The position numbers and the translations under genes are program-made. Below the pieces are notes generated by a model, which saw only the letters and a program-made list of their open reading frames with translations, did no database searches and was not told the origin of the DNA. A stretch of DNA of 63,894 bases, counting the filler, from Sphacelaria rigidula (taxonomy: Eukaryota), in NCBI GenBank assembly GCA_964200075.2. It is 5 parts of 5 records of this genome, joined end to end, with 100 filler letters (N's around TTAATTAATTAA, not from the genome) between each part and the next. Parts side by side here need not be neighbours in the genome. Positions count along the whole stretch, not along the records: positions 1 to 12,703 come from CAXNAA020003487.1; 4 more parts are not named here. The stretch is one strand, 5' to 3'. Shown one piece after another: positions 8,286-51,198 of the stretch (positions within the stretch are counted from its first letter, which is position 1; the number at the start of each line of letters is the position of its first letter).

Positions 8286-9366
8286 TAATGTGTGCGATGA
8301 CATGGCTCAACCACGTACGGACTGGCCACCCGCAGCTTGGCGGATGTGCTTCTCGAATACCCATCCATGGACGGTGCTCACGCTTCCCCTCAACCCGTGA
8401 ACAAGTATTCAAAGAGCGCGCTGTTTTGGTGACCTCAACATCTTGCCCTCCAGGCACTGAGTGTATCTGTCAACAGAAACGTCAATCAAAATCGTGGCGG
8501 GCGGGAGAGGATACGGCCCTGTCCAAGGATGCCCTCTGTTTTGTTCTTCTTGTTCACGCACAGCTAATGGGCAGTCTGTGATCGCGTTGACCGCTGATCC
8601 ACAGCCTGCTTGTAGAAAGTCCACCCTAGAGTCCTACCTGTGTATCACAGCCGTCAGTTGTACCGACATGCGGGTGATGTACTACAGCCGTGGTGTACTC
8701 CTGACGGGAATGCATGTTTAAGCAGCAGATCCGCATGGCGCTACACTCAGTTGCCGACGAATGTTCGCTAGTAAACTAGTTCTGTTATCTAGGGCGCCAT
8801 GGATGGGTGAAAGCTCATGCATGATTTCTATACCAATATCGTCAGCGTCGTGTGTCTTGCTGAAACTGGCAAGCAACCTGCGATCAAGAACCCAAGTTAT
8901 TCAAAACGGTGCCAAGTTTGATCCCCTACGCGTCGCCGGCCTACGTTTTCTGAGAAGCGTCTTGTGATGCAAAATATAATGAAGCTAGACGTCTTATAGC
9001 ACCACAAGCGTGGGCAGTAGTGTGTGTGTGTGTGTGTACGCATTCCCCATAAAGCACAGCACACTCGACCAAACGCCACAAAAACTTACGCGTCAGGGGC
9101 TCTTCTCAAACCGACATGGATGTTCACGTGCTGGAGGACCCCGCAAGTGGCGACCCCACGTAGGTACTTACAAGCGAGCATCCTCTTCAGCATATCTCAT
9201 CTCATCCTGCTTTGTTCCCGACTGTAGAACATTACAGAACGTCGTCCGTTGTCGCTCTCGTCGCTATGCCACCGTAATTTCTGGACATGAGCAGAAACCG
9301 AGCAACTGAAGGTAGCACAGCACTGCTTAGCCGCAGGCCGTTGTCTTGCTGGCGCCCACCCGCAAC

Positions 9367-12264
9367 ATGGCGGCAGAACATGCCGAGGTAGCAAGGAGTC
9401 GGCGCGGTACTATGGCACACGAACATAGCAGCAGCCGCGATGACGACAGTGACAACGCAATCAGGCGGTGTGGGGCATCGTCGCCGACATTAAAGCCATC
9501 CCCGTCAATCCGACACATGACGCCGCCGCCGATCGCTTTCCATGTGACGGGGTTCGGTGTGTTCAACGGTATCCCAGACAACCCGACAACACATATTGTC
9601 AATGAACTGCCGGGAGTGCTAATGGCGCGAGGATTTCACAACAGTCGCGACGGTAGTGGCGAGTCGAGCGACCGTGGTTCTTCGTTTTCAGGGCAGCCGC
9701 GGTCAGGGGCCTTCATAGCGAAGGATGGTAGCTTCGAGATATACCCCCGGGGTGTGCTACATGTGTCGGCGGATGAAGGGGGGCGTCAGGTCCGCCAAAT
9801 GCACAGCCGACTGTCGAGTCGCCGCCATCGCCACCACCGCGGCAGCCACGATATGACGAGTAGCGGCGGCGTTACCGACGCAAGCGTAATGGATGAAGAA
9901 GCGGAGTATCCCGCAGAGCGTCCTCTGTACCAAGATACCGGAAGGCGGTTTGTTGATGAAAACTCGGGCTGCGACGGCGCCGCGGATGATATTAGTGGCA
10001 ATTGCAATAAATCTGATGGCGGCGCTTCTTCTATTCCGGCCGACGCCGGTATCAGCGCCGGCAGTGATCCCGGCGGACCGGTTTACCCCGACGAGGACGA
10101 TGATGAGAGAAAAGGGCAAACCTCCGTGTTTGTGCACTGCGGGGTGGGCGGCGACGGGAGAACGTTCAAACTCGAAAGCCGGGCTTACAACGAGGCGACG
10201 TTCCGCGTTCCGGATGAAAAGGGGTACCAGCCGACCCACATTGCGATAGACGAGAGCAACGCCGACATCGCTCATGTTCGGAACACCACCCTACCAATTG
10301 CCGAGACGCTCAGCAAGCTGGAGGAAATGGGCTGGGGCCCCGCCCACGTGATGGAGTCCACATGCGCTGGACGGTTTGTGTGCAACTACGTGTACTACAC
10401 TTCGCTCGGCCTATGTGAAGCAGAGGCTTCCTCCGCTGTGCCGGCGGCGGAGGATCCTTGTCCGCCGACGTCGTCGCCGCCGCCGAAGAGCCGCTGCCAA
10501 CGGCACTGTCTGTTTCTGCATGTGCCACCTTTCAGCGTGATAGCGAAGGACGAACAGCTGTCCTTTGTTGTCGACTGCCTCACTGCGATTGCCGAGTGCC
10601 TCGGGGCGTCGGCGGGAACGAGCGATGCGAAAAAAGATTCAAGCATCGACGAAGGACCCGCCGTTGCCGTGGGGGCACGGGGGGGAAACGCGGGGTCCGA
10701 TACAACAGACGTATTCGCGCCGGCGCCCGCAGATACTGTGGCGCCCTCCTCACACGGCAACATCAGGCCGAATGAGCAGCGTGGGCCGCCGTCGAACCTG
10801 CCGTCTGCTACTGTCCCGTCTCGATCAAACGCGGGTTCGTTCAGGTCGTACGCCGCCACGGCCATACGGCGGTCGAACTCCATGCCATACTACGGCGCCG
10901 GTCGCTCTTCGAACCTGCTCGTAGGCGAAAGGGATGGTTCTACGTCCTACTTATCGTCCGTGATATGGGATGAGGACGATCTACGGCCAGTCGCAACAAA
11001 GGCGGAAGCTCGTCTGCCAATGCCGTCATCCCGTGCGCACGGTGATTCGCGCTACGCACGGTTTCGGTCTGCCGCCAGGGGCCCGGCGACTCACCACAGT
11101 GCCGACTACAGCAGCAGCAGCGTTGATGTCGGCGGCGGTATGCTTCGAGGGTACTCGGGCCGACAGGATCAAGAGGATAACGTTTCTGAATATTATGATG
11201 AGGACGACGAAGAAACGCAGGCGGAGGTGACTAGGCGGCGGCTGATCGAGGCGGGGTTCGAAGCACTTGACGTGGACGCAGGCATGGCAACAACCGGCTC
11301 TGATGACATGGAGACCAACATGCAGTTCCTCTTGGATATCACGCCGCTACTGCCTCGCGGCTCGCCCGCCGTCGGTGACATCGACGCCCTACGCGAGTTC
11401 CTCAGCGGCACCAGTGATCATGGGCCAGGCGGCCGGCGACGCAACATCGGCGCCGGCGGAGCAGCGCCGCGCCCCTCCCCCGTCGGCAGCAGAGTGCGAA
11501 CCAGGAGCGCCGGCTCAGCGGGAGGGATGGCAGGCGTCACTCCAAAGTGGGTGGGAGAAATCAGGCCGAAAGTTTCGCCAAATGGCGTGAACGGTACCGC
11601 ATCGCCGGGCGTTTCGTCGGAGGCGAGCACCCCTCGGAGCGGAGGCGGACTGCTGGCCAGATTCCGCCGCCATAAGAAGAACTCTAGTAGCACGGGGTCG
11701 GCATCCAGTACGCTGTCTACGGCGTCGCTGTCGTCGTCGACGACGTCGACGTCATTAAAAACAAGGAGGCCGGCAGCCGCAGCGGCAACCAAAGAACAAC
11801 GAAGCGCTCTCGCCACACCTGCCATCGCGCGGTCGTACTCGATGGGCACAACCTCGACCACGACAGTGAGCACAGTTGATGCAGCGGCCTCTGGCGGGAG
11901 AGGTGGCGACGCGTCGCCCGAATACTGTCGCCGCACTACCGGCAACAGCACCCGTTCTCTCTCGCCACCGCCGGATAACCTGCGCTGCACCGTCGGCGTC
12001 CCCACGAAAATAGACCCATCCGCGGGCTGGGGCGACACATCGCCTCTTGCCGCCACCACACTTCGCCTGGTGCTCTTAGTGAGGGTCGACTTGGGGATGG
12101 GAGCCGGGGCGATTGCCGCTCATTGCTGTAGGGCTGTCCTTGCCGCGACTCGGAAGGTGGAGGGGAGCGGCGCCGCGGATGAATTGGCGGTATGGAGGAA
12201 CGCGGGCGAGGCGACGGTAGTGCTAGCAGCAAGGGATTCTCGAGCACTCGGTGCTGTTCTTGAG
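9367..12264 (+). CDS. Exon of a pyroglutamyl-peptidase I (C15) + UBA-like + PTH2-like fusion protein; 3' exon(s) not found in this contig
   Basis: HVTGFGVFNGIPDNPT, VHCGV, KLESRAYN (Glu 10174), AGRFVCNYVYY (Cys 10381), FLHVP (His 10519); UBA-like RLIEAGFE...QFLLD at ~11233-11340; PTH2-like LVLLVRVDLGMGAGAIAAHC...W..AGEATVVL at 12061-12264; phase-0 donor GAG|GTGAGG at 12265. First ATG at 9367, alternative at 9517. Confidence 0.88.
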
Positions 12265-12626
12265 GTGAGGGCACACACTCTAGTAGGGCTTGATACTCGA
12301 CCAGCATGCACTGGTCGTACGAAGTGTACTAGTAGTGTACTAGTAGTGTACTAGTAGTGGCTGTGCAGCGGCGAGTACCGCCAGTACATATATATTTATG
12401 TACTTGTCGCTACCACGCCTAGTGAACTAGAAACAGGAAAGTATCTAATGCGCCGCTCCCAAGGCACAATGCGCAACACACACACTAAACACAGACGGGG
12501 GTGGGGGTGCTAGCTAGAGGTTTGCGTGACGGCGGTAAGGCTGTAGTACGCTAGGAGGCTACATGTTGGGGTTGAAACCGCTACTTCGTATTTTCTCTGC
12601 AATATATCTCTGGGAACTTTCCAAGG

Positions 12627-12703
12627 GTAGGTCGAGTAGAGTATGTACTCTTGAGTACTCGAGCAAAATACTCGAGTATTTACTCTACTCGACGTTTGAG
12701 TAG
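12627..12703 (+). repeat. TACTCGAGTA/TACCCGAGTA-motif repeat fragment at the contig end
   Basis: GTACTCTTGAGTAC..G...AATAC.CGAGTATTTACTCTAC matches ~43035-43080 and ~44235-44270. Confidence 0.75.
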
Positions 12704-12803
12704 NNNNNNNNNNNNNNNNNNNNNNNNNNNNNNNNNNNNNNNNNNNNTTAATTAATTAANNNNNNNNNNNNNNNNNNNNNNNNNNNNNNNNNNNNNNNNN
12801 NNN
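12704..12803. other. Artificial contig linker 1
   Basis: N44-TTAATTAATTAA-N44 (stops in all six frames); same structure four times at ~12.8-kb spacing. Confidence 0.98.
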
Positions 12804-19700: not shown

Positions 19701-20561
19701 CGCAAATCCCATGCACAATGGCAGATTTGGAATTTGAACAGCAGAAGAAGCTCGAAATAAATCTTCACTTTGCCCTCCAATTCATCCGGAAATTGGACAA
19801 AAAGATATTTATTACGAACGGCGTCAGCTGGGCATATCCCGCATACTGCACCGTTATCAGGGTATGGGATCCGACACGCAGAAAACATTGTTGGAAGATA
19901 TTCATCCTCTTGCCCCCCAGTTCATGTATAAATGGGCTAAAGGATGAATAGTTTTCAACAGCTTTTGCTGAATAGAGATCCAACACACTGACTACGAGTG
20001 TATGTCCACACGCCTACGAGCTTAGGTACGACGCTTCGGCTGAAGGCGTGGATGCTAGGATGACGGTATATACCTCACATATGAGTCCACATAGCTCATG
20101 AAAACCCCGTGGTCCGCAGTCTACCAAAATCACTCAATCAAGCATGCTTTTCTTTACGAAAACCAAGTAAATTCCAGACGAGTCATTATTTGTCCGACCC
20201 TTGAAAGCTATTATGAGGGATGACTTGTTAGAAGCAGCATCTAGAGATTATGCGGTTTCAAGAGGAAGCCTAAGCACAAAGGGAGTCAAGTTCTCCCGAA
20301 TTTCATGTACCATGCAGCAACAAAGTGTTACGCACGCTTGCGCTGTCACAGTGATTGAGGATCAAACTCCAGGCACCGGTAGGTAACATGATTTCCGAGC
20401 GCCTGAATTGTCATGCCGTCAAGTGTTGTGACACCGTGTGATGGACGCTGGTGGTACTCGTGCTCACCAAGCAGTTGATGAACACTACGTTTTTTTTCAA
20501 ATTCCTGCTCTCGATTCCTGTGTTTACCCCAGCAGGAAGGATCATCAACTGGCGATGCACG

Positions 20562-23006
20562 ATGCGCTGTTCCTACCTCGTTGCCCATGCCTCGAGAATA
20601 TCGATGCATACCGTTCGGCGCTTATTGCGTACACCAGCCGCGAGAGGCCCATCGCACCTGAGGCGGACCTTGCGAGTGCTCCCCAGACACACGGCAGGTG
20701 TCGGTCATTGTCTGACTGGTGTCGCAGCCGACGGATCTGAACGGGTGACATCTGACAGCGTGAAAGTCGCGACGAGTTCGACGGTCACTCTCGCGGATGG
20801 ACGACCTTCCAGGGCAAAAGGCGCGTGTGACTGGTCGAATGCAACGTGTTGGCCCGAAGAAAGGACAGAGATTGCTACGGTGGCGAGATCAGCTGGGCGG
20901 AGAGTGCACCCGTGGGCGAAGGCGCGAAAAAAATGTAACGAGACACGCACGTCGTCGTCGTCCGATCGATCAGGGCCCGGCAATGTTCGAGGAATCCCCA
21001 GGGGTATTCGTTCGAATAAGATTGTTGGGCGGAATCAACCGCAAAGAGGCAGGACTGCTTCTGGCGGAGAAGTATCCGTGCACACAAGTAATGCTGCTTT
21101 CGAGGTTAGCCGTGCTCAACGATCATACATGCTGCGATTAAAGGAGGCTGGAGAGAGGAGAGATTGGAGCGCGGCGCTTGCCGTGCTACAAGAGGCTCTT
21201 GCACGGGCCGATTCGGCGGATGTCGTTCACGTGCGAATGTACGGTAGAGTAATGAACGTATTCGCAAAGTGCCGGAAGTGGGAACTTGCGCTGGATCTGT
21301 TACAGCAAATAAGGGAGAGAGCCGCCCCTTTGAATAATGTCATCTACAACTCGGCCATTGCGGCGTGCGGCAACGGTGGGCAGTGGGAGCGGGCGTTGGA
21401 TTTGTTGCACCAGATGCAAGCAGAGGGCATCTCCCCTGACGTGGTGAGCTATAGTTCAGCCATGACGGCTTGCGTGGACTGTGGACAGTGGGAAAGGGCG
21501 TTGGCTGTATTTCGGGATATGCGTGCCAACGGCACACGGCCTAACGTGGTGAGCTATAGTGCTGCTATAAAGGCGTGCGGGGACGGGGGGCAGTGGAATC
21601 AAGCTTTGCATCACTTGAGGGAGATGCAAGAGGGGGGTATCGCGCCTAACGTCTTCGTGTACAGCACGGCTATGAAAGCGTGTGGGGATGCCGGTCAGTG
21701 GCAGGCGGCTATGAACTTGCTGCGAGACATGCGTGCTGGGGGCATTTCGCCGAATAGGGTATGCTACAACACTGCTATGACGGCGTTCGGTAAGGGTGGC
21801 CAGTGGGAGAGAGCCCTAGACACTATGCGAGAGATGCAGGCGGATGGTGTTCCCCCGGATGTTGTGACTTACAGCGCGGCGATGAAGGCTTGCGGAGATG
21901 CCGGTCGATGGGACAAGTCATTGGATCTGCTGGGGGAGATGCAGGCCGAGGGCATTCCACGTGACACCACGAGCTATAATACTATTGTGAAGGCATACGG
22001 TGACAGCGGTCAGTGGGAGCAATCTTTGGATACTATGCAACGAATGCGGGCGGAGGGTATCGCGCCCGACGTTGTGACGTACGGCAGTGCGATGAAGGCT
22101 TGTGGAGATAGTGGTCAATGGGAAACTGCGTTAGATCTATTTCGAGAGATGCACGTGGAGAGAGTTAAGCGCAGTGTTGTAATATACACCACAGGCATGG
22201 AGGCATGCGCTGATGGCGGACAATGGGAGCGAGCTTTGAAGTTATTACGACATATGCACAAGGAGGGCGTTGCGCCCGACATGACAACCTACAACGCGGC
22301 CCTGAAAGTATGCGGGGATAGTGGCCAGGGCGAGAAGATGCTGGAGCTTCTGCGCGAGGTGCAAGCGGAAGGGAACACATCGGATATCACAACCTACAAT
22401 GTTGCTGTTACAGCGTACGGAAATTTGGGGCAATGGGAGAGGGCGCTGGAAATATTGCGGCAAGTACAGGCTGAGGGCATTGCGCCGGACTGCATAACCT
22501 ATAGTGCAGCAATGAAAGCGTGCCTGGACAGTGGTCAGTGGGAAACTACGTTGGAGCTCTTGAATGAGATGCAGCAAGAGGGCATCATGCCTGACATCAT
22601 CACGTACAACACGGCAATGTCAGCATGCGGGGCCGGTGGTCAATGGAAACGGGCCTTAGAACTCATGCGACAAATGCCCACGCAGGGGATCATGCCCGAC
22701 CGTGTCAGCTACAACACCGCCATGAAAGCTTGTAGAGGCAGCGGTCAATGCGATAGATGTTTAGAGCTGCTGCGAGAAATGAGTATGAGGGGCATTGAGC
22801 CGGATCCCATGAGCTACAGTGAGGCAATCTCAGCATGTGCCGATGGTGGCCAATTGAAGCGAGCCCTAGAGTTGTTCCGTCAGATTCATGCAAAACCTGC
22901 TGCAAATGTCGCAATTTACAATGCAGCAATATTTGCGTGGTGGAGGTCCGCCAGGGCCCAATCAATGCAATCTGAGTCTTCCGGTGCGGGGCAGGGTTTG
23001 CCGTGA
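20562..23006 (+). CDS. Intronless P-class pentatricopeptide repeat protein (~16 motifs), likely organelle-targeted
   Basis: Tandem 35-aa motifs of type PDVVTYSAAMKACGDxGQWERALxLLREMQAEGIx from ~21225 to 22900; no E/DYW domain; Arg-rich, acid-free N-terminus from ATG 20562 (the ORF is open from 20451). Confidence 0.95.
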   Translation: MRCSYLVAHASRISMHTVRRLLRTPAARGPSHLRRTLRVLPRHTAGVGHCLTGVAADGSERVTSDSVKVATSSTVTLADGRPSRAKGACDWSNATCWPEERTEIATVARSAGRRVHPWAKARKKCNETRTSSSSDRSGPGNVRGIPRGIRSNKIVGRNQPQRGRTASGGEVSVHTSNAAFEVSRAQRSYMLRLKEAGERRDWSAALAVLQEALARADSADVVHVRMYGRVMNVFAKCRKWELALDLLQQIRERAAPLNNVIYNSAIAACGNGGQWERALDLLHQMQAEGISPDVVSYSSAMTACVDCGQWERALAVFRDMRANGTRPNVVSYSAAIKACGDGGQWNQALHHLREMQEGGIAPNVFVYSTAMKACGDAGQWQAAMNLLRDMRAGGISPNRVCYNTAMTAFGKGGQWERALDTMREMQADGVPPDVVTYSAAMKACGDAGRWDKSLDLLGEMQAEGIPRDTTSYNTIVKAYGDSGQWEQSLDTMQRMRAEGIAPDVVTYGSAMKACGDSGQWETALDLFREMHVERVKRSVVIYTTGMEACADGGQWERALKLLRHMHKEGVAPDMTTYNAALKVCGDSGQGEKMLELLREVQAEGNTSDITTYNVAVTAYGNLGQWERALEILRQVQAEGIAPDCITYSAAMKACLDSGQWETTLELLNEMQQEGIMPDIITYNTAMSACGAGGQWKRALELMRQMPTQGIMPDRVSYNTAMKACRGSGQCDRCLELLREMSMRGIEPDPMSYSEAISACADGGQLKRALELFRQIHAKPAANVAIYNAAIFAWWRSARAQSMQSESSGAGQGLP

Positions 23007-25503: not shown

Positions 25504-25603
25504 NNNNNNNNNNNNNNNNNNNNNNNNNNNNNNNNNNNNNNNNNNNNTTAATTAATTAANNNNNNNNNNNNNNNNNNNNNNNNNNNNNNNNNNNNNNNNN
25601 NNN
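25504..25603. other. Artificial contig linker 2
   Basis: Same 100-nt linker. Confidence 0.98.
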
Positions 25604-38302: not shown

Positions 38303-38402
38303 NNNNNNNNNNNNNNNNNNNNNNNNNNNNNNNNNNNNNNNNNNNNTTAATTAATTAANNNNNNNNNNNNNNNNNNNNNNNNNNNNNNNNNNNNNNNNNN
38401 NN
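38303..38402. other. Artificial contig linker 3
   Basis: Same 100-nt linker. Confidence 0.98.
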
Positions 38403-42368: not shown

Positions 42369-44620
42369 GTGGTCAGATTTCAATTTCAGCACGGGGCGCC
42401 CACCACCTTGTCACGTGTACCTGAGCAGACGGTAGAGGGAGTAAAGAATGAGCGCCAATACGAACCACACGATCGAAACTACTGGGCGCAGTGCAGGAAG
42501 TATGCTGCAGTACAGGGCAATACACTACTGTTCTGTCTGTACAAAAGTACACAAGTGCTACGTAGCAACATCAATCTCACGTATATTTTGTACTGCTGGT
42601 AGTTTTGTCCTGTCCTGTCCTGTCCTGCACTACAGTATTCGACTGCGCTTACTGTAGCTTCGGTAGCTTGTGGTGTTCAACATGTGTACTTGTGAACTGA
42701 AAAAACAAACGACGACAACGAGGGATGCCCTTGATGCTGTCAACGGGCGATCTATTGCGCTGTTTACAACCTGGTGCGAAGTACACGTATATGTTGATTT
42801 TTTGTACTCATGTCCTGTCCTTTCCTATCCTACAGTATACTGACGGCACTGTCTGTTCAGTAGTTTCGGTAATATGTGGTGTTTAAAACGTACCCTCGTG
42901 AGAGCTCAAGAAAAAAAGTACAAGATACTCGTAGATGAAGTTGATTTTGTGTGAAGCACCAGTAGACGCGCGAACATGGGGTTTTCAAAACCATGGATAA
43001 AGACGTAGGTTACAAGCGCGTGTCGGGCAGGGTGTGTACTCTTGAGTACCCGGGTATAATACCCGAGTATTTACTCTACACAAGGTTTGGGAAGACTGGG
43101 TACAACTCAAGTACTCCCCCCGGATACCGGGTAGAGTTGTGTATGATACAGATATTTTCAGAAATACCCAGGTAGAGAGTATTACTTACTTGGGTATGAC
43201 GTCAATACTCGACCCAAAAATTGGGTGGAGTTGGGCACGATCTCAGTACTCTATCGAAAGATTCGGCAAGAACTCTCATCAATGCCCGGGTATAGAGTAT
43301 CACATGGGTATCACCCTGATACCCTTCTCAGATTTTGGGTAGAGTTGAGTATGATCTCAATTGTCTACCCAAGTAAGTTTGGGGGTAATTTTGGTATGAT
43401 CTCGATACTCTACCCAAATATTTGGTAAGCAATCTCAGTAGCTCTGACCGTTCGTAACTCAGTGAAGTCACATCACAGGCTACCTTGACTGTAAGGGCGA
43501 ATCATGACCAACAGCAATAAAAGCGTGCGGTCTCATCGCCCCGCACATGATAACTTCATATTGTGGCCAGATTTCAGTTTTCAGCACAAAACGTGTCCCA
43601 CCTTGAGCGAATATGAGTAGACTGGTAAAGGGAGTAAAAACTGGGCGACAACGTGGACCACGCTACCGAAACTACTGCAGATAGCGCAGTAAATATACTG
43701 CAGTTTTGGACAATACAGTATTGGCTGCACAAAAATGTAACGGTGCGGCGTAGTAAGGTCAATCTCACGTATACGTTGTGCTTCACTTCTTCTGTCTTGT
43801 CCTGTACTACGAAATATTTGACCGCAATGTCTCCAGTAGTTTCTGTAGCGTGTAGTGTTCAACACGTTTACCTATGAATTACAAAATATCAATTCGAGAA
43901 CGAGAGATGCCCTGTATGTTGTCAACGGGCAATCTATCGCGCTGTGTACAACCTGTCGCGAAATATACGTATATGTTGAACTGCTCCTACTTGTGTCCTG
44001 TCCTCCTCTGCCCCACAGTATACGAACTTCACTGTCTGTTGAGTAGTTATTTCGGTGGTGTGTGGTGTCTAAAACGCATGCTTGTGAGAACAGAACAAAA
44101 CAAGATAACAGAGATAGATTAAGATGATTCTGTGTGTAGGATCAGTAGACTCACGAATTGTATACGAGGTTTCAAAACCTTGGATACAAATGTATGTCAC
44201 GACCAGACATACCTGGTAAAGTATATACTTGTGAATACCCGGGCAATATACCCGAGTATTTACTCCACCAAGTTTTGGGGAGATTGGTTACGACCCCAAA
44301 TACTCTACCCACAAGTTGGCTAGAATTGGGTACGATTCCATACTCTACTCGAGTTTCTGAGTACGAAAAGTACGAGTTTTCGAAATACCCTGGTGTCGGG
44401 TATGCCCCGCCCAACACGCTCTTGGTAAGTTGCGACCGACACATCTGGTGGAGTTTACATTTTTGTATATATATATTGGTATTCATTTTACCCAAGTTTT
44501 GGGTAGATTGGGTCCGACCTCAATACTGTATCCAAATGTTGGGCATGTACTCTCAGCAGTGCCCGGGTATAGAGTATCACTTGGGTACGACCACAATACT
44601 CTACCCAAAAATTGAGTAGA
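42369..44620 (+). repeat. Diverged ~1.2-kb tandem duplication with TACCCG(A/G)GTA motifs
   Basis: GTGG.CAGATTTCA..TTCAGCAC at 42369 and 43564; GTCAACGGGC.ATCTAT.GCGCTGT at ~42739 and 43921; GCCCGGGTATAGAGTATCAC at ~43284 and 44561. Confidence 0.85.
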
Positions 44621-51098: not shown

Positions 51099-51198
51099 NN
51101 NNNNNNNNNNNNNNNNNNNNNNNNNNNNNNNNNNNNNNNNNNTTAATTAATTAANNNNNNNNNNNNNNNNNNNNNNNNNNNNNNNNNNNNNNNNNNNN
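51099..51198. other. Artificial contig linker 4
   Basis: Same 100-nt linker. Confidence 0.98.

Follow-up and report, generated by a model that had tools for sequence, protein, structure and literature searches.

Introduction

The pyroglutamyl-peptidases I (PGP-I) of MEROPS family C15 for which structures have been solved (PDB 3rnz, 1iof and 1a2z) are single domains of 192-228 amino acids (aa), whereas the C15 domain analyzed here, which has the same fold, the same catalytic triad and the same lack of a signal peptide, is split by three insertions and forms the N-terminal part of a 1014-aa protein of the brown alga Sphacelaria rigidula, in which it is followed by a segment of probable, diverged UBA fold and by a domain of peptidyl-tRNA hydrolase 2 (PTH2) fold. 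The corresponding gene was found in a window (meaning here the whole stretch of DNA that was analyzed) of 63,894 nucleotides, composed of five contigs of assembly GCA_964200075.2 joined end to end. According to PMC7804941, Glu-Cys-His constitutes the triad of family C15 and, in the A. niger enzyme, a DxxxxxC motif is positioned ahead of the catalytic Cys; the role of cytosolic PGP-I is called unknown by PMC7804941 and PMC8001834 in the fungi and archaea that they discuss.

With respect to the PTH2 domain, homology of the window protein extends across the entire domain to human PTRH2/Bit1 (1q7s), to the archaeal enzymes 1wn2 and 1xty and to yeast Pth2 (relative P0008 matches 1q7s with an E-value of 2.9e-11), and the R-x-D, W-G-E, Asp and T-V-x-x-x-G-P positions of these proteins are kept. 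It differs from them by the lack of an N-terminal membrane anchor, by its location as the C-terminal domain of a peptidase fusion, and by the presence of A, H, R and V at the positions of human K81, Q85, H88 and the Thr of the DAGRT loop, respectively. In a study of S. solfataricus PTH2, Lys, Asp and Thr were reportedly essential, with Thr being proposed as the nucleophile. Animals have proteins in which a UBA is joined to PTH2 with no peptidase present. In human PTRH2, K81 and Q85 are placed in the putative active site and K81 forms a salt bridge with D145 (PMC10217894).

Each of the three domains is known, and the three-domain architecture is real, expressed, conserved and apparently uncharacterized. 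A search covering approximately 8.1 million papers in PMC together with 0.36 million preprints (a collection outside of which subscription journals, InterPro and supplements fall) retrieved no paper containing both ‘pyroglutamyl peptidase’ and ‘peptidyl-tRNA hydrolase’, nor one linking PGP-I to the proteasome or to an N-degron, and none of the other papers retrieved deals with this architecture, as judged from the title or the opening of the abstract. One JGI record already carries an automatic two-enzyme name. Judged by its sequence, the gene in the window would represent a derived form of this architecture with a pseudo-enzymatic PTH2 domain.

Results

One large exon and a distal exon encode the fusion

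The stop-free frame at 9331-12354 (+) spans 1007 codons, with its first in-frame ATG at 9367. A Pfam scan of this frame returned two families above their cut-offs and no third one, these being Peptidase_C15 (PF01470; aa 251-350, 39.7 bits versus a cut-off of 22.7) and PTH2 (PF01981; aa 900-962, 41.3 bits versus a cut-off of 23), the latter with its N-half alone. This exon is located on the first contig of the window (G000:C3487), which ends at position 12703. The C-half of the PTH2 domain was located on a different contig by means of the C-terminal part of a Pylaiella relative, which produced a single match in the genome: an exon of 48 codons that is preceded by a CAG acceptor, terminates with a stop codon and has a phase matching that of the GT donor at 12265 (Table 1).

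Contigs assembled from four of the eight sequencing runs were used to assess the structure of this gene; none of the runs is recorded as RNA, their RNA nature being a guess, and since the rows of runs X1 and X7 are identical they represent at most three data sets. In 4/4 runs a single contig extends from 9292 or 9342 to 12267 with zero differences or gaps and continues into the C-half exon, the loose end after 12267 being the start of that exon, and there is zero cover in the bins from 12318 to 12585. These joined contigs, being intron-less, still show a spliced transcript for the 1014-aa protein. A gene-model merge or an assembly artefact is ruled out by run contigs that cross the whole exon and pass unbroken into the C-half exon, and a pseudogene or truncated PTH2 is ruled out as well, since the exon for the C-half is present and joined to the large exon by splicing. 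The first-pass annotation had described a three-domain fusion in one stop-free exon, including the N-half of PTH2, that was not the result of a gene-model merge; all of this holds, the 3’ exon which it anticipated has been recovered, and, in place of the transcripts splitting or ending between the domains that it had named as evidence to the contrary, each of the four runs has a contig that reads through the exon unbroken.

At the 5’ side, the contigs of runs X4 and X5 carry a loose end measuring up to 108 bases, joined at a CAG near 9292-9294, the sequence of which was not found in the genome assembly (G000) and which is probably a 5’ untranslated exon missing from that assembly. The NCBI model P0003 omits two internal stretches, both of which are read through by the run contigs. 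In P0002, P0004 and similar records, the C-terminal tail seems to result from reading through into the intron.

The fusion is widespread and occurs in two types

A first search retrieved 12 relatives, all of which contain C15 and PTH2. From a profile search against 1.84 billion representatives the 150 matches listed were taken, 50 of which (of at least 345 aa) were scanned; both cut-offs were passed by 33, and one more barely fails on C15. Two further searches contributed 7 more fusions. Following the removal of 11 near-duplicate cluster members from 63 sequences with both domains (four near-copies of the window protein or of other rows having been set aside first), at least 52 distinct C15-PTH2 fusions were retained, these being 18 fusions lacking key PTH2 active-site residues (PX-type) and 34 fusions retaining them (intact-type). 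Judging from these sequences, the C15-UBA-PTH2 architecture is widespread in protists and not special to the Sphacelaria gene, so that of the suggestion of the first-pass annotation that it was undescribed only the literature part stands.

The brown-algal members that could be named are from Sphacelaria, Ectocarpus (two), Pylaiella, Cladosiphon and Laminaria, to which are added the xanthophyte Heterococcus sp. DN1 and Phaeothamnion, these two and Sphacelaria belonging to the PX clade; the remaining brown-algal-type rows were assigned by tree (support 100). Two of the 34 intact-type fusions come from eukaryote-only sources (MMETSP and EukProt), and our guess is that the intact-type fusions are those of stramenopiles. 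Their C15 domains share a mean identity of only 35% (34 proteins). The compact intact-type fusions have the domain order and C15 triad of the window protein, but measure 376-931 aa (mostly 400-550) rather than 1014 aa and have an intact PTH2 active site.

A metagenome scan found PTH2 beside C15 at 3/80 loci, one of them with a short intron. An intact-type fusion (L027:663-5781) is located in a gene-dense metagenome contig near genes for a lipoyl ligase, TRM13 and a lysine methyltransferase. The C15 tree, built from 174 rows, is poorly resolved at depth, with stand-alone C15 proteins intermixed with fusions; the fusion may have had a single origin. Among other proteins encountered, P0032 is a C15-only protein of 217 aa that is sister to the Heterococcus fusion, while P0180 combines a UBA-like segment and PTH2 with no C15; both may be split or truncated forms. 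Matches to DARPin, ankyrin and latrotoxin in the PDB comparison were discounted as sums of weak repeats.

The C15 domain retains its catalytic triad

The C15 domain is interrupted by three low-complexity insertions (aa 89-122, 150-251 and 353-378), which are 10-14% identical in a comparison with 14 brown-algal-type relatives (the set used for all identities given below), as opposed to 53-62% for the core blocks. The model of this domain matches B. amyloliquefaciens PGP-I (3rnz) with a Z-score of 15.5 and an rmsd of 4.0 over 192/207 residues, the next unrelated row having a Z-score of 9.7. The Glu270, Cys339 and His385 columns are invariant in 52/52 fusions, in agreement with the intact triad read by the first-pass annotation, by which the three insertions had been overlooked. 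The Asp position of the DxxxxxC motif is occupied by Cys333 in the window protein, by Asp in most relatives and by Ser in P. furiosus PGP-I (1iof), the latter indicating that this Asp is not universal. By analogy with described PGP-I enzymes, the C15 domain would cleave pyroglutamate (pGlu) from blocked N-termini.

In seven brown-algal-type proteins (P0009, P0010, P0012 and P0019-P0022) Gly or Glu replaces an Arg that is kept in 32/34 intact-type fusions, and which contributes to the pGlu pocket.

Loss of PTH2 active-site residues with retention of the fold

A further feature overlooked by the first-pass annotation is that the PTH2 domain lacks the active-site Lys, His and Thr. In addition to the Ala and Arg at the Lys and His positions (Table 1), the window protein carries His919 at the position of helix-1 Gln (human Q85) and Val984 at that of the Thr of the DAGRT loop, in which Asp980 (human D145) is retained. 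The active-site Lys and the helix-1 His are each present in 34/34 intact-type and 0/18 PX-type fusions, and the DAGRT Thr in 31/31 intact-type fusions versus 0/7 of the PX-type proteins having a residue there, while Lys, His, Asp and Thr are all found in 9/9 archaeal PTH2 proteins. The PTH2 domain of the window protein is thus probably catalytically dead.

In brown algae this domain is, on the identity of its two halves (65% for the N-half and 54-60% for the C-half), not decaying, and both the UBA segment (72%) and the N-half of the pseudo-PTH2 are as conserved as the C15 blocks. When the diagnostic columns were removed, the 18 PX-type proteins remained on one side of a branch (100/97 for the concatenated alignment and 92 for C15 alone). 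In the PTH2-only tree with an archaeal root this grouping was not recovered, three changes being needed, and Heterococcus and Phaeothamnion were placed on long branches. A single loss of the PTH2 active site in the PX-type is likely from these alignments.

The genome contains a second PTH2 gene (G000:C12294; L097 at approximately 226-770, -). Lys, Gln and His are retained in its two visible exons, the C-half lying outside the part recovered, and the intron that separates these exons appears to have a GC donor.

A candidate UBA fold and disordered linkers

A profile of 13 UBA-like segments, compared with the PDB, gave three best matches that are all UBA proteins (E-values of 0.0028, 0.006 and 0.015). 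In a profile-profile comparison the score was 20.7, whereas none of 200 column shuffles exceeded 16.0. The model of the segment consists of three helices with a pLDDT of 90-94, and the first 14 rows of a Foldseek search with it are all UBA domains or UBA-bearing chains; the structural comparison with VIA returned a Z-score of 6.7 with UBAP1 and 1.5 Å over 43 residues with the UBA of Ede1. The nearest PDB entry is 1whc by sequence, and the UBA domains of USP5, Ede1 and UBAP1 by model. The three-helix bundle and the GF turn are common to the window segment and to known UBA domains (PF00627, PF22562), from which the segment differs in falling under the Pfam cut-offs and in having Ala instead of Met before GF: the loop reads AGF in the window protein, with GF or GY in 16/16 brown-algal-type proteins, where MGF is the usual loop of the ubiquitin-binding patch. 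At the corresponding position of the intact-type fusions, 8/34 pass the Pfam cut-off for UBA or UBA_7 and 14 match more weakly, and with a hidden Markov model (HMM) built from six sequences relatives score up to 7.6 bits. A search of the ESM Atlas with the segment gave leads at 0.76-0.77 only, and P0044 gave no usable match. The predicted complex of the UBA with the alga’s own ubiquitin scored 0.03 versus a mark of 0.34 in a run that used no alignment, and it counts neither way. Taken together, the profile and model results, which are consistent but individually weak, suggest that aa 618-661 adopt a diverged UBA fold.

The domains are connected by linkers that are 10-26% identical. The Ser/Thr-rich linker of the first-pass annotation is present (Table 1), and the second linker contains short motifs conserved in 12-14 of the 14 relatives, which are possible phosphorylation or docking sites. 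Further linker motifs were noted at approximately 11929-12033 (aa 855-857, 866-867 and 887-889). The full-length AlphaFold model has a mean pLDDT of 41, and its PTH2 half is not reliable.

Other features of the window

An interspersed repeat occupies the contig end at 12620-12703, and recurs at approximately 43000-44620 and in the part of the intron on C2857; in the runs, short contigs cover it to great depth. The linkers at 12704-12803, 25504-25603, 38303-38402 and 51099-51198, each consisting of two 44-N runs flanking a 12-base spacer, join separate contigs of approximately 12.7 kb, and genes located across them are therefore not true neighbours. The next contig contains an 854-aa pentatricopeptide-repeat protein in a single frame (20442-23003, +).

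Table 1 Coordinates of the features of the C15-UBA-PTH2 gene (window positions unless a contig is named)
Feature	Position	Strand	Remarks
Transcribed 5’ leader	9292..9366	+	In-frame stop at 9328-9330
Large exon, coding part	9367..12264	+	aa 1-966 of the 1014-aa protein
C15 pyroglutamyl peptidase domain	9529..10611	+	aa 55-415; Pfam, fold match, block conservation
Catalytic Glu270	10174..10176	+	Column alignment; aligned to PDB 1iof
Catalytic Cys339	10381..10383	+	Column alignment; aligned to PDB 1iof
Catalytic His385	10519..10521	+	Column alignment
Diverged UBA-fold three-helix bundle (candidate)	11218..11349	+	aa 618-661; profile and model
Conserved short motifs in disordered second linker	11515..11676	+	aa 717-734 and 760-769
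Ser/Thr-rich disordered linker	11680..11946	+	aa 772-860; 42% Ser+Thr; 16% identity in relatives
PTH2-fold domain, N-half	12061..12264	+	aa 899-966
Active-site Lys position (human K81), Ala915	12109-12111	+	Alignment
Helix-1 His position (human H88), Arg922	12130-12132	+	Alignment
Phase-0 intron, first part	12265..12703	+	GT donor to contig end; crosses assembly break
Last 48 codons, PTH2 C-half exon	G000:C2857:7959-8102	-	Other contig

Discussion

The interpretation that we tentatively favour, while giving it somewhat less than an even chance, is that the Sphacelaria protein is an active cytosolic pGlu hydrolase tethered to the ubiquitin and shuttle-factor machinery through its UBA and pseudo-PTH2 domains. 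The N-terminus of the window protein is not hydrophobic and the protein is therefore probably cytosolic. C15 would be the sole working enzyme within the 1014 aa, with the UBA and the pseudo-PTH2 acting as binding modules: the UBA may bind ubiquitin, whereas the pseudo-PTH2 may keep a non-catalytic task like that of yeast Pth2, either binding of ubiquitin-like (UBL) domains of the Rad23/Dsk2 type or dimerization through helix 1. The loss of the PTH2 active site with retention of the fold suits such a binding role, and for the yeast protein binding to the UBL domains of Rad23 and Dsk2 (PMC4092868) and a function as docking site for Dsk2 (bioRxiv 10.64898/2026.09.28.754956) have been described. 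Together, these two modules would anchor the peptidase to the machinery of ubiquitin-proteasome quality control, and deblocking would there be directed at pGlu-capped substrates or, with greater likelihood, at peptide products whose pGlu cap makes them resistant to aminopeptidases. The ancestral protist fusion would have had a working PTH2, and in algae of the PX clade tRNA recycling would have been left to the separate PTH2 gene, the fused copy having turned into an adaptor.

Several observations weigh against this interpretation. Pfam UBA and UBA_7 have no match in the window protein, whose score with the six-sequence HMM (-3.3 bits) lies inside the noise of shuffled sequences (top score of 3.8 among 500), and 12/34 intact-type fusions have no UBA match at all; the UBA-like segment of the first-pass annotation is thus upheld as a fold, by profile and model, while it fails to reach the Pfam family. 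The Foldseek E-values are 1.3 or worse, a VIA Z-score of 6.7 is a level that small helical bundles attain through their common arrangement, and the top VIA rows include the UBA folds of EF-Ts and Mex67, which bind partners other than ubiquitin. Disordered linkers of approximately 200 aa separate the domains, from which it follows that no fixed geometry couples them. Furthermore, proteasomal degradation does not depend on a free N-terminus, which makes deblocking of whole substrates the weaker version and peptide products the likelier one. Of the proteasome-linked deblocking enzyme proposed by the first-pass annotation, a link to the ubiquitin system is accordingly still plausible on account of the UBA fold and the UBL binding of yeast Pth2, whereas the unblocking of ubiquitinated substrates is without direct support, and deblocking of proteasome products or of pGlu-tRNA fits as well. 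A sequential route for drop-off peptides, in which PTH2 releases and C15 deblocks, is a weak candidate, given how seldom Gln is exposed by methionine aminopeptidase.

An alternative that would dispense with a common substrate is a loose fusion, in which a UBA-PTH2 unit and a pGlu peptidase with a housekeeping role act on unrelated substrates and are joined for co-expression or localization, and the pseudo-PTH2 serves as a dimerization or stability module. The long, unconserved linkers agree with this, as do the joining of C15 to unrelated GNAT, SET and alpha/beta hydrolase domains in other proteins, the presence of stand-alone C15 proteins among the fusions in the poorly resolved tree, and the long-branch PTH2 domains of Heterococcus and Phaeothamnion, which are as decay would give. 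(The other C15 fusions, P0119, P0126, P0053 and P0025, are of the types GNAT-C15, SET-C15, alpha/beta hydrolase-C15 and triple C15 repeat.) However, an identical domain order in at least 52 distinct proteins, even where the intact-type C15 domains have diverged to the mean identity given above, and the strong conservation of the UBA and PTH2 modules across the brown-algal-type proteins weigh against it, and we regard it as somewhat unlikely. A functional explanation of the substitutions, according to which PTH2 is still active in a rearranged form, with the basic residue shifted by two helical turns from the Lys to the His position and pairing with the retained Asp, can draw on the strong conservation of the domain, on Arg or Lys at the His position in 16/16 (11 with R and 5 with K among the 18 PX-type fusions) and on the Asp of the DAGRT loop, kept in 6/8 complete PX-type proteins. 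Yet this loop is remodelled, with its Thr lost in 7/7, helix-1 Gln is lost in 6/18 PX-type proteins including that of the window, neither site is occupied by a basic residue in Heterococcus and Phaeothamnion, and the genome has a separate PTH2 with Lys and His, which together leave a rearranged active site very improbable.

A more specific possibility is that the C15-UBA-PTH2 family constitutes a protist salvage enzyme for pGlu-tRNA(Gln), and thus the first proofreading route for cyclized glutaminyl-tRNA: Gln-tRNA(Gln) would cyclize to dead-end pGlu-tRNA, around which substrate the fusion would have grown, and in the PX-clade form the C15 triad would cut pGlu-tRNA, with the dead PTH2 serving to hold the 3’ end of the tRNA. 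In its favour, pGlu-tRNA(Gln) is the only substrate cleavable by both a pGlu hydrolase and PTH2, and such overlapping chemistries would explain the loss of one active site with the fold kept. In the literature, its hydrolysis is named as an unexplored role of pyroglutamyl peptidase (PMC8001834), its formation is reported in vitro (PMC2943598), and T. litoralis PGP-I is described as having been discovered via esterase activity (PMC4602302). This explanation nevertheless leaves the UBA without a purpose, and the dead PTH2 domains lack a basic character (10 K+R versus 10 D+E in the window protein and 9 versus 16 in Heterococcus, compared to 10-19 K+R in the intact ones). Moreover, both active sites are strictly retained in 34/34 intact fusions, which suggests two separate jobs, and in the small sample of 9/9 archaeal PTH2 loci C15 was not present within 5 kb. 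We consider salvage of pGlu-tRNA to be unlikely on balance, and retain tethering of the peptidase to the ubiquitin machinery as the preferred interpretation.

The conservation of this fusion across many protists ties PGP-I, an enzyme whose cellular job is poorly defined, to domains of the ubiquitin type and to one of tRNA recycling, and it offers a direct test of the published idea that PGP-I recycles pGlu-tRNA(Gln). If the salvage explanation were true, the PX form would be a natural experiment in which a cysteine peptidase took over tRNA deacylation. In addition, the clean division into 34 fusions whose PTH2 is live and 18 in which it is dead yet conserved allows the catalytic and non-catalytic roles of PTH2 to be separated, which is also relevant to the human disease gene PTRH2, in which the two roles are combined.

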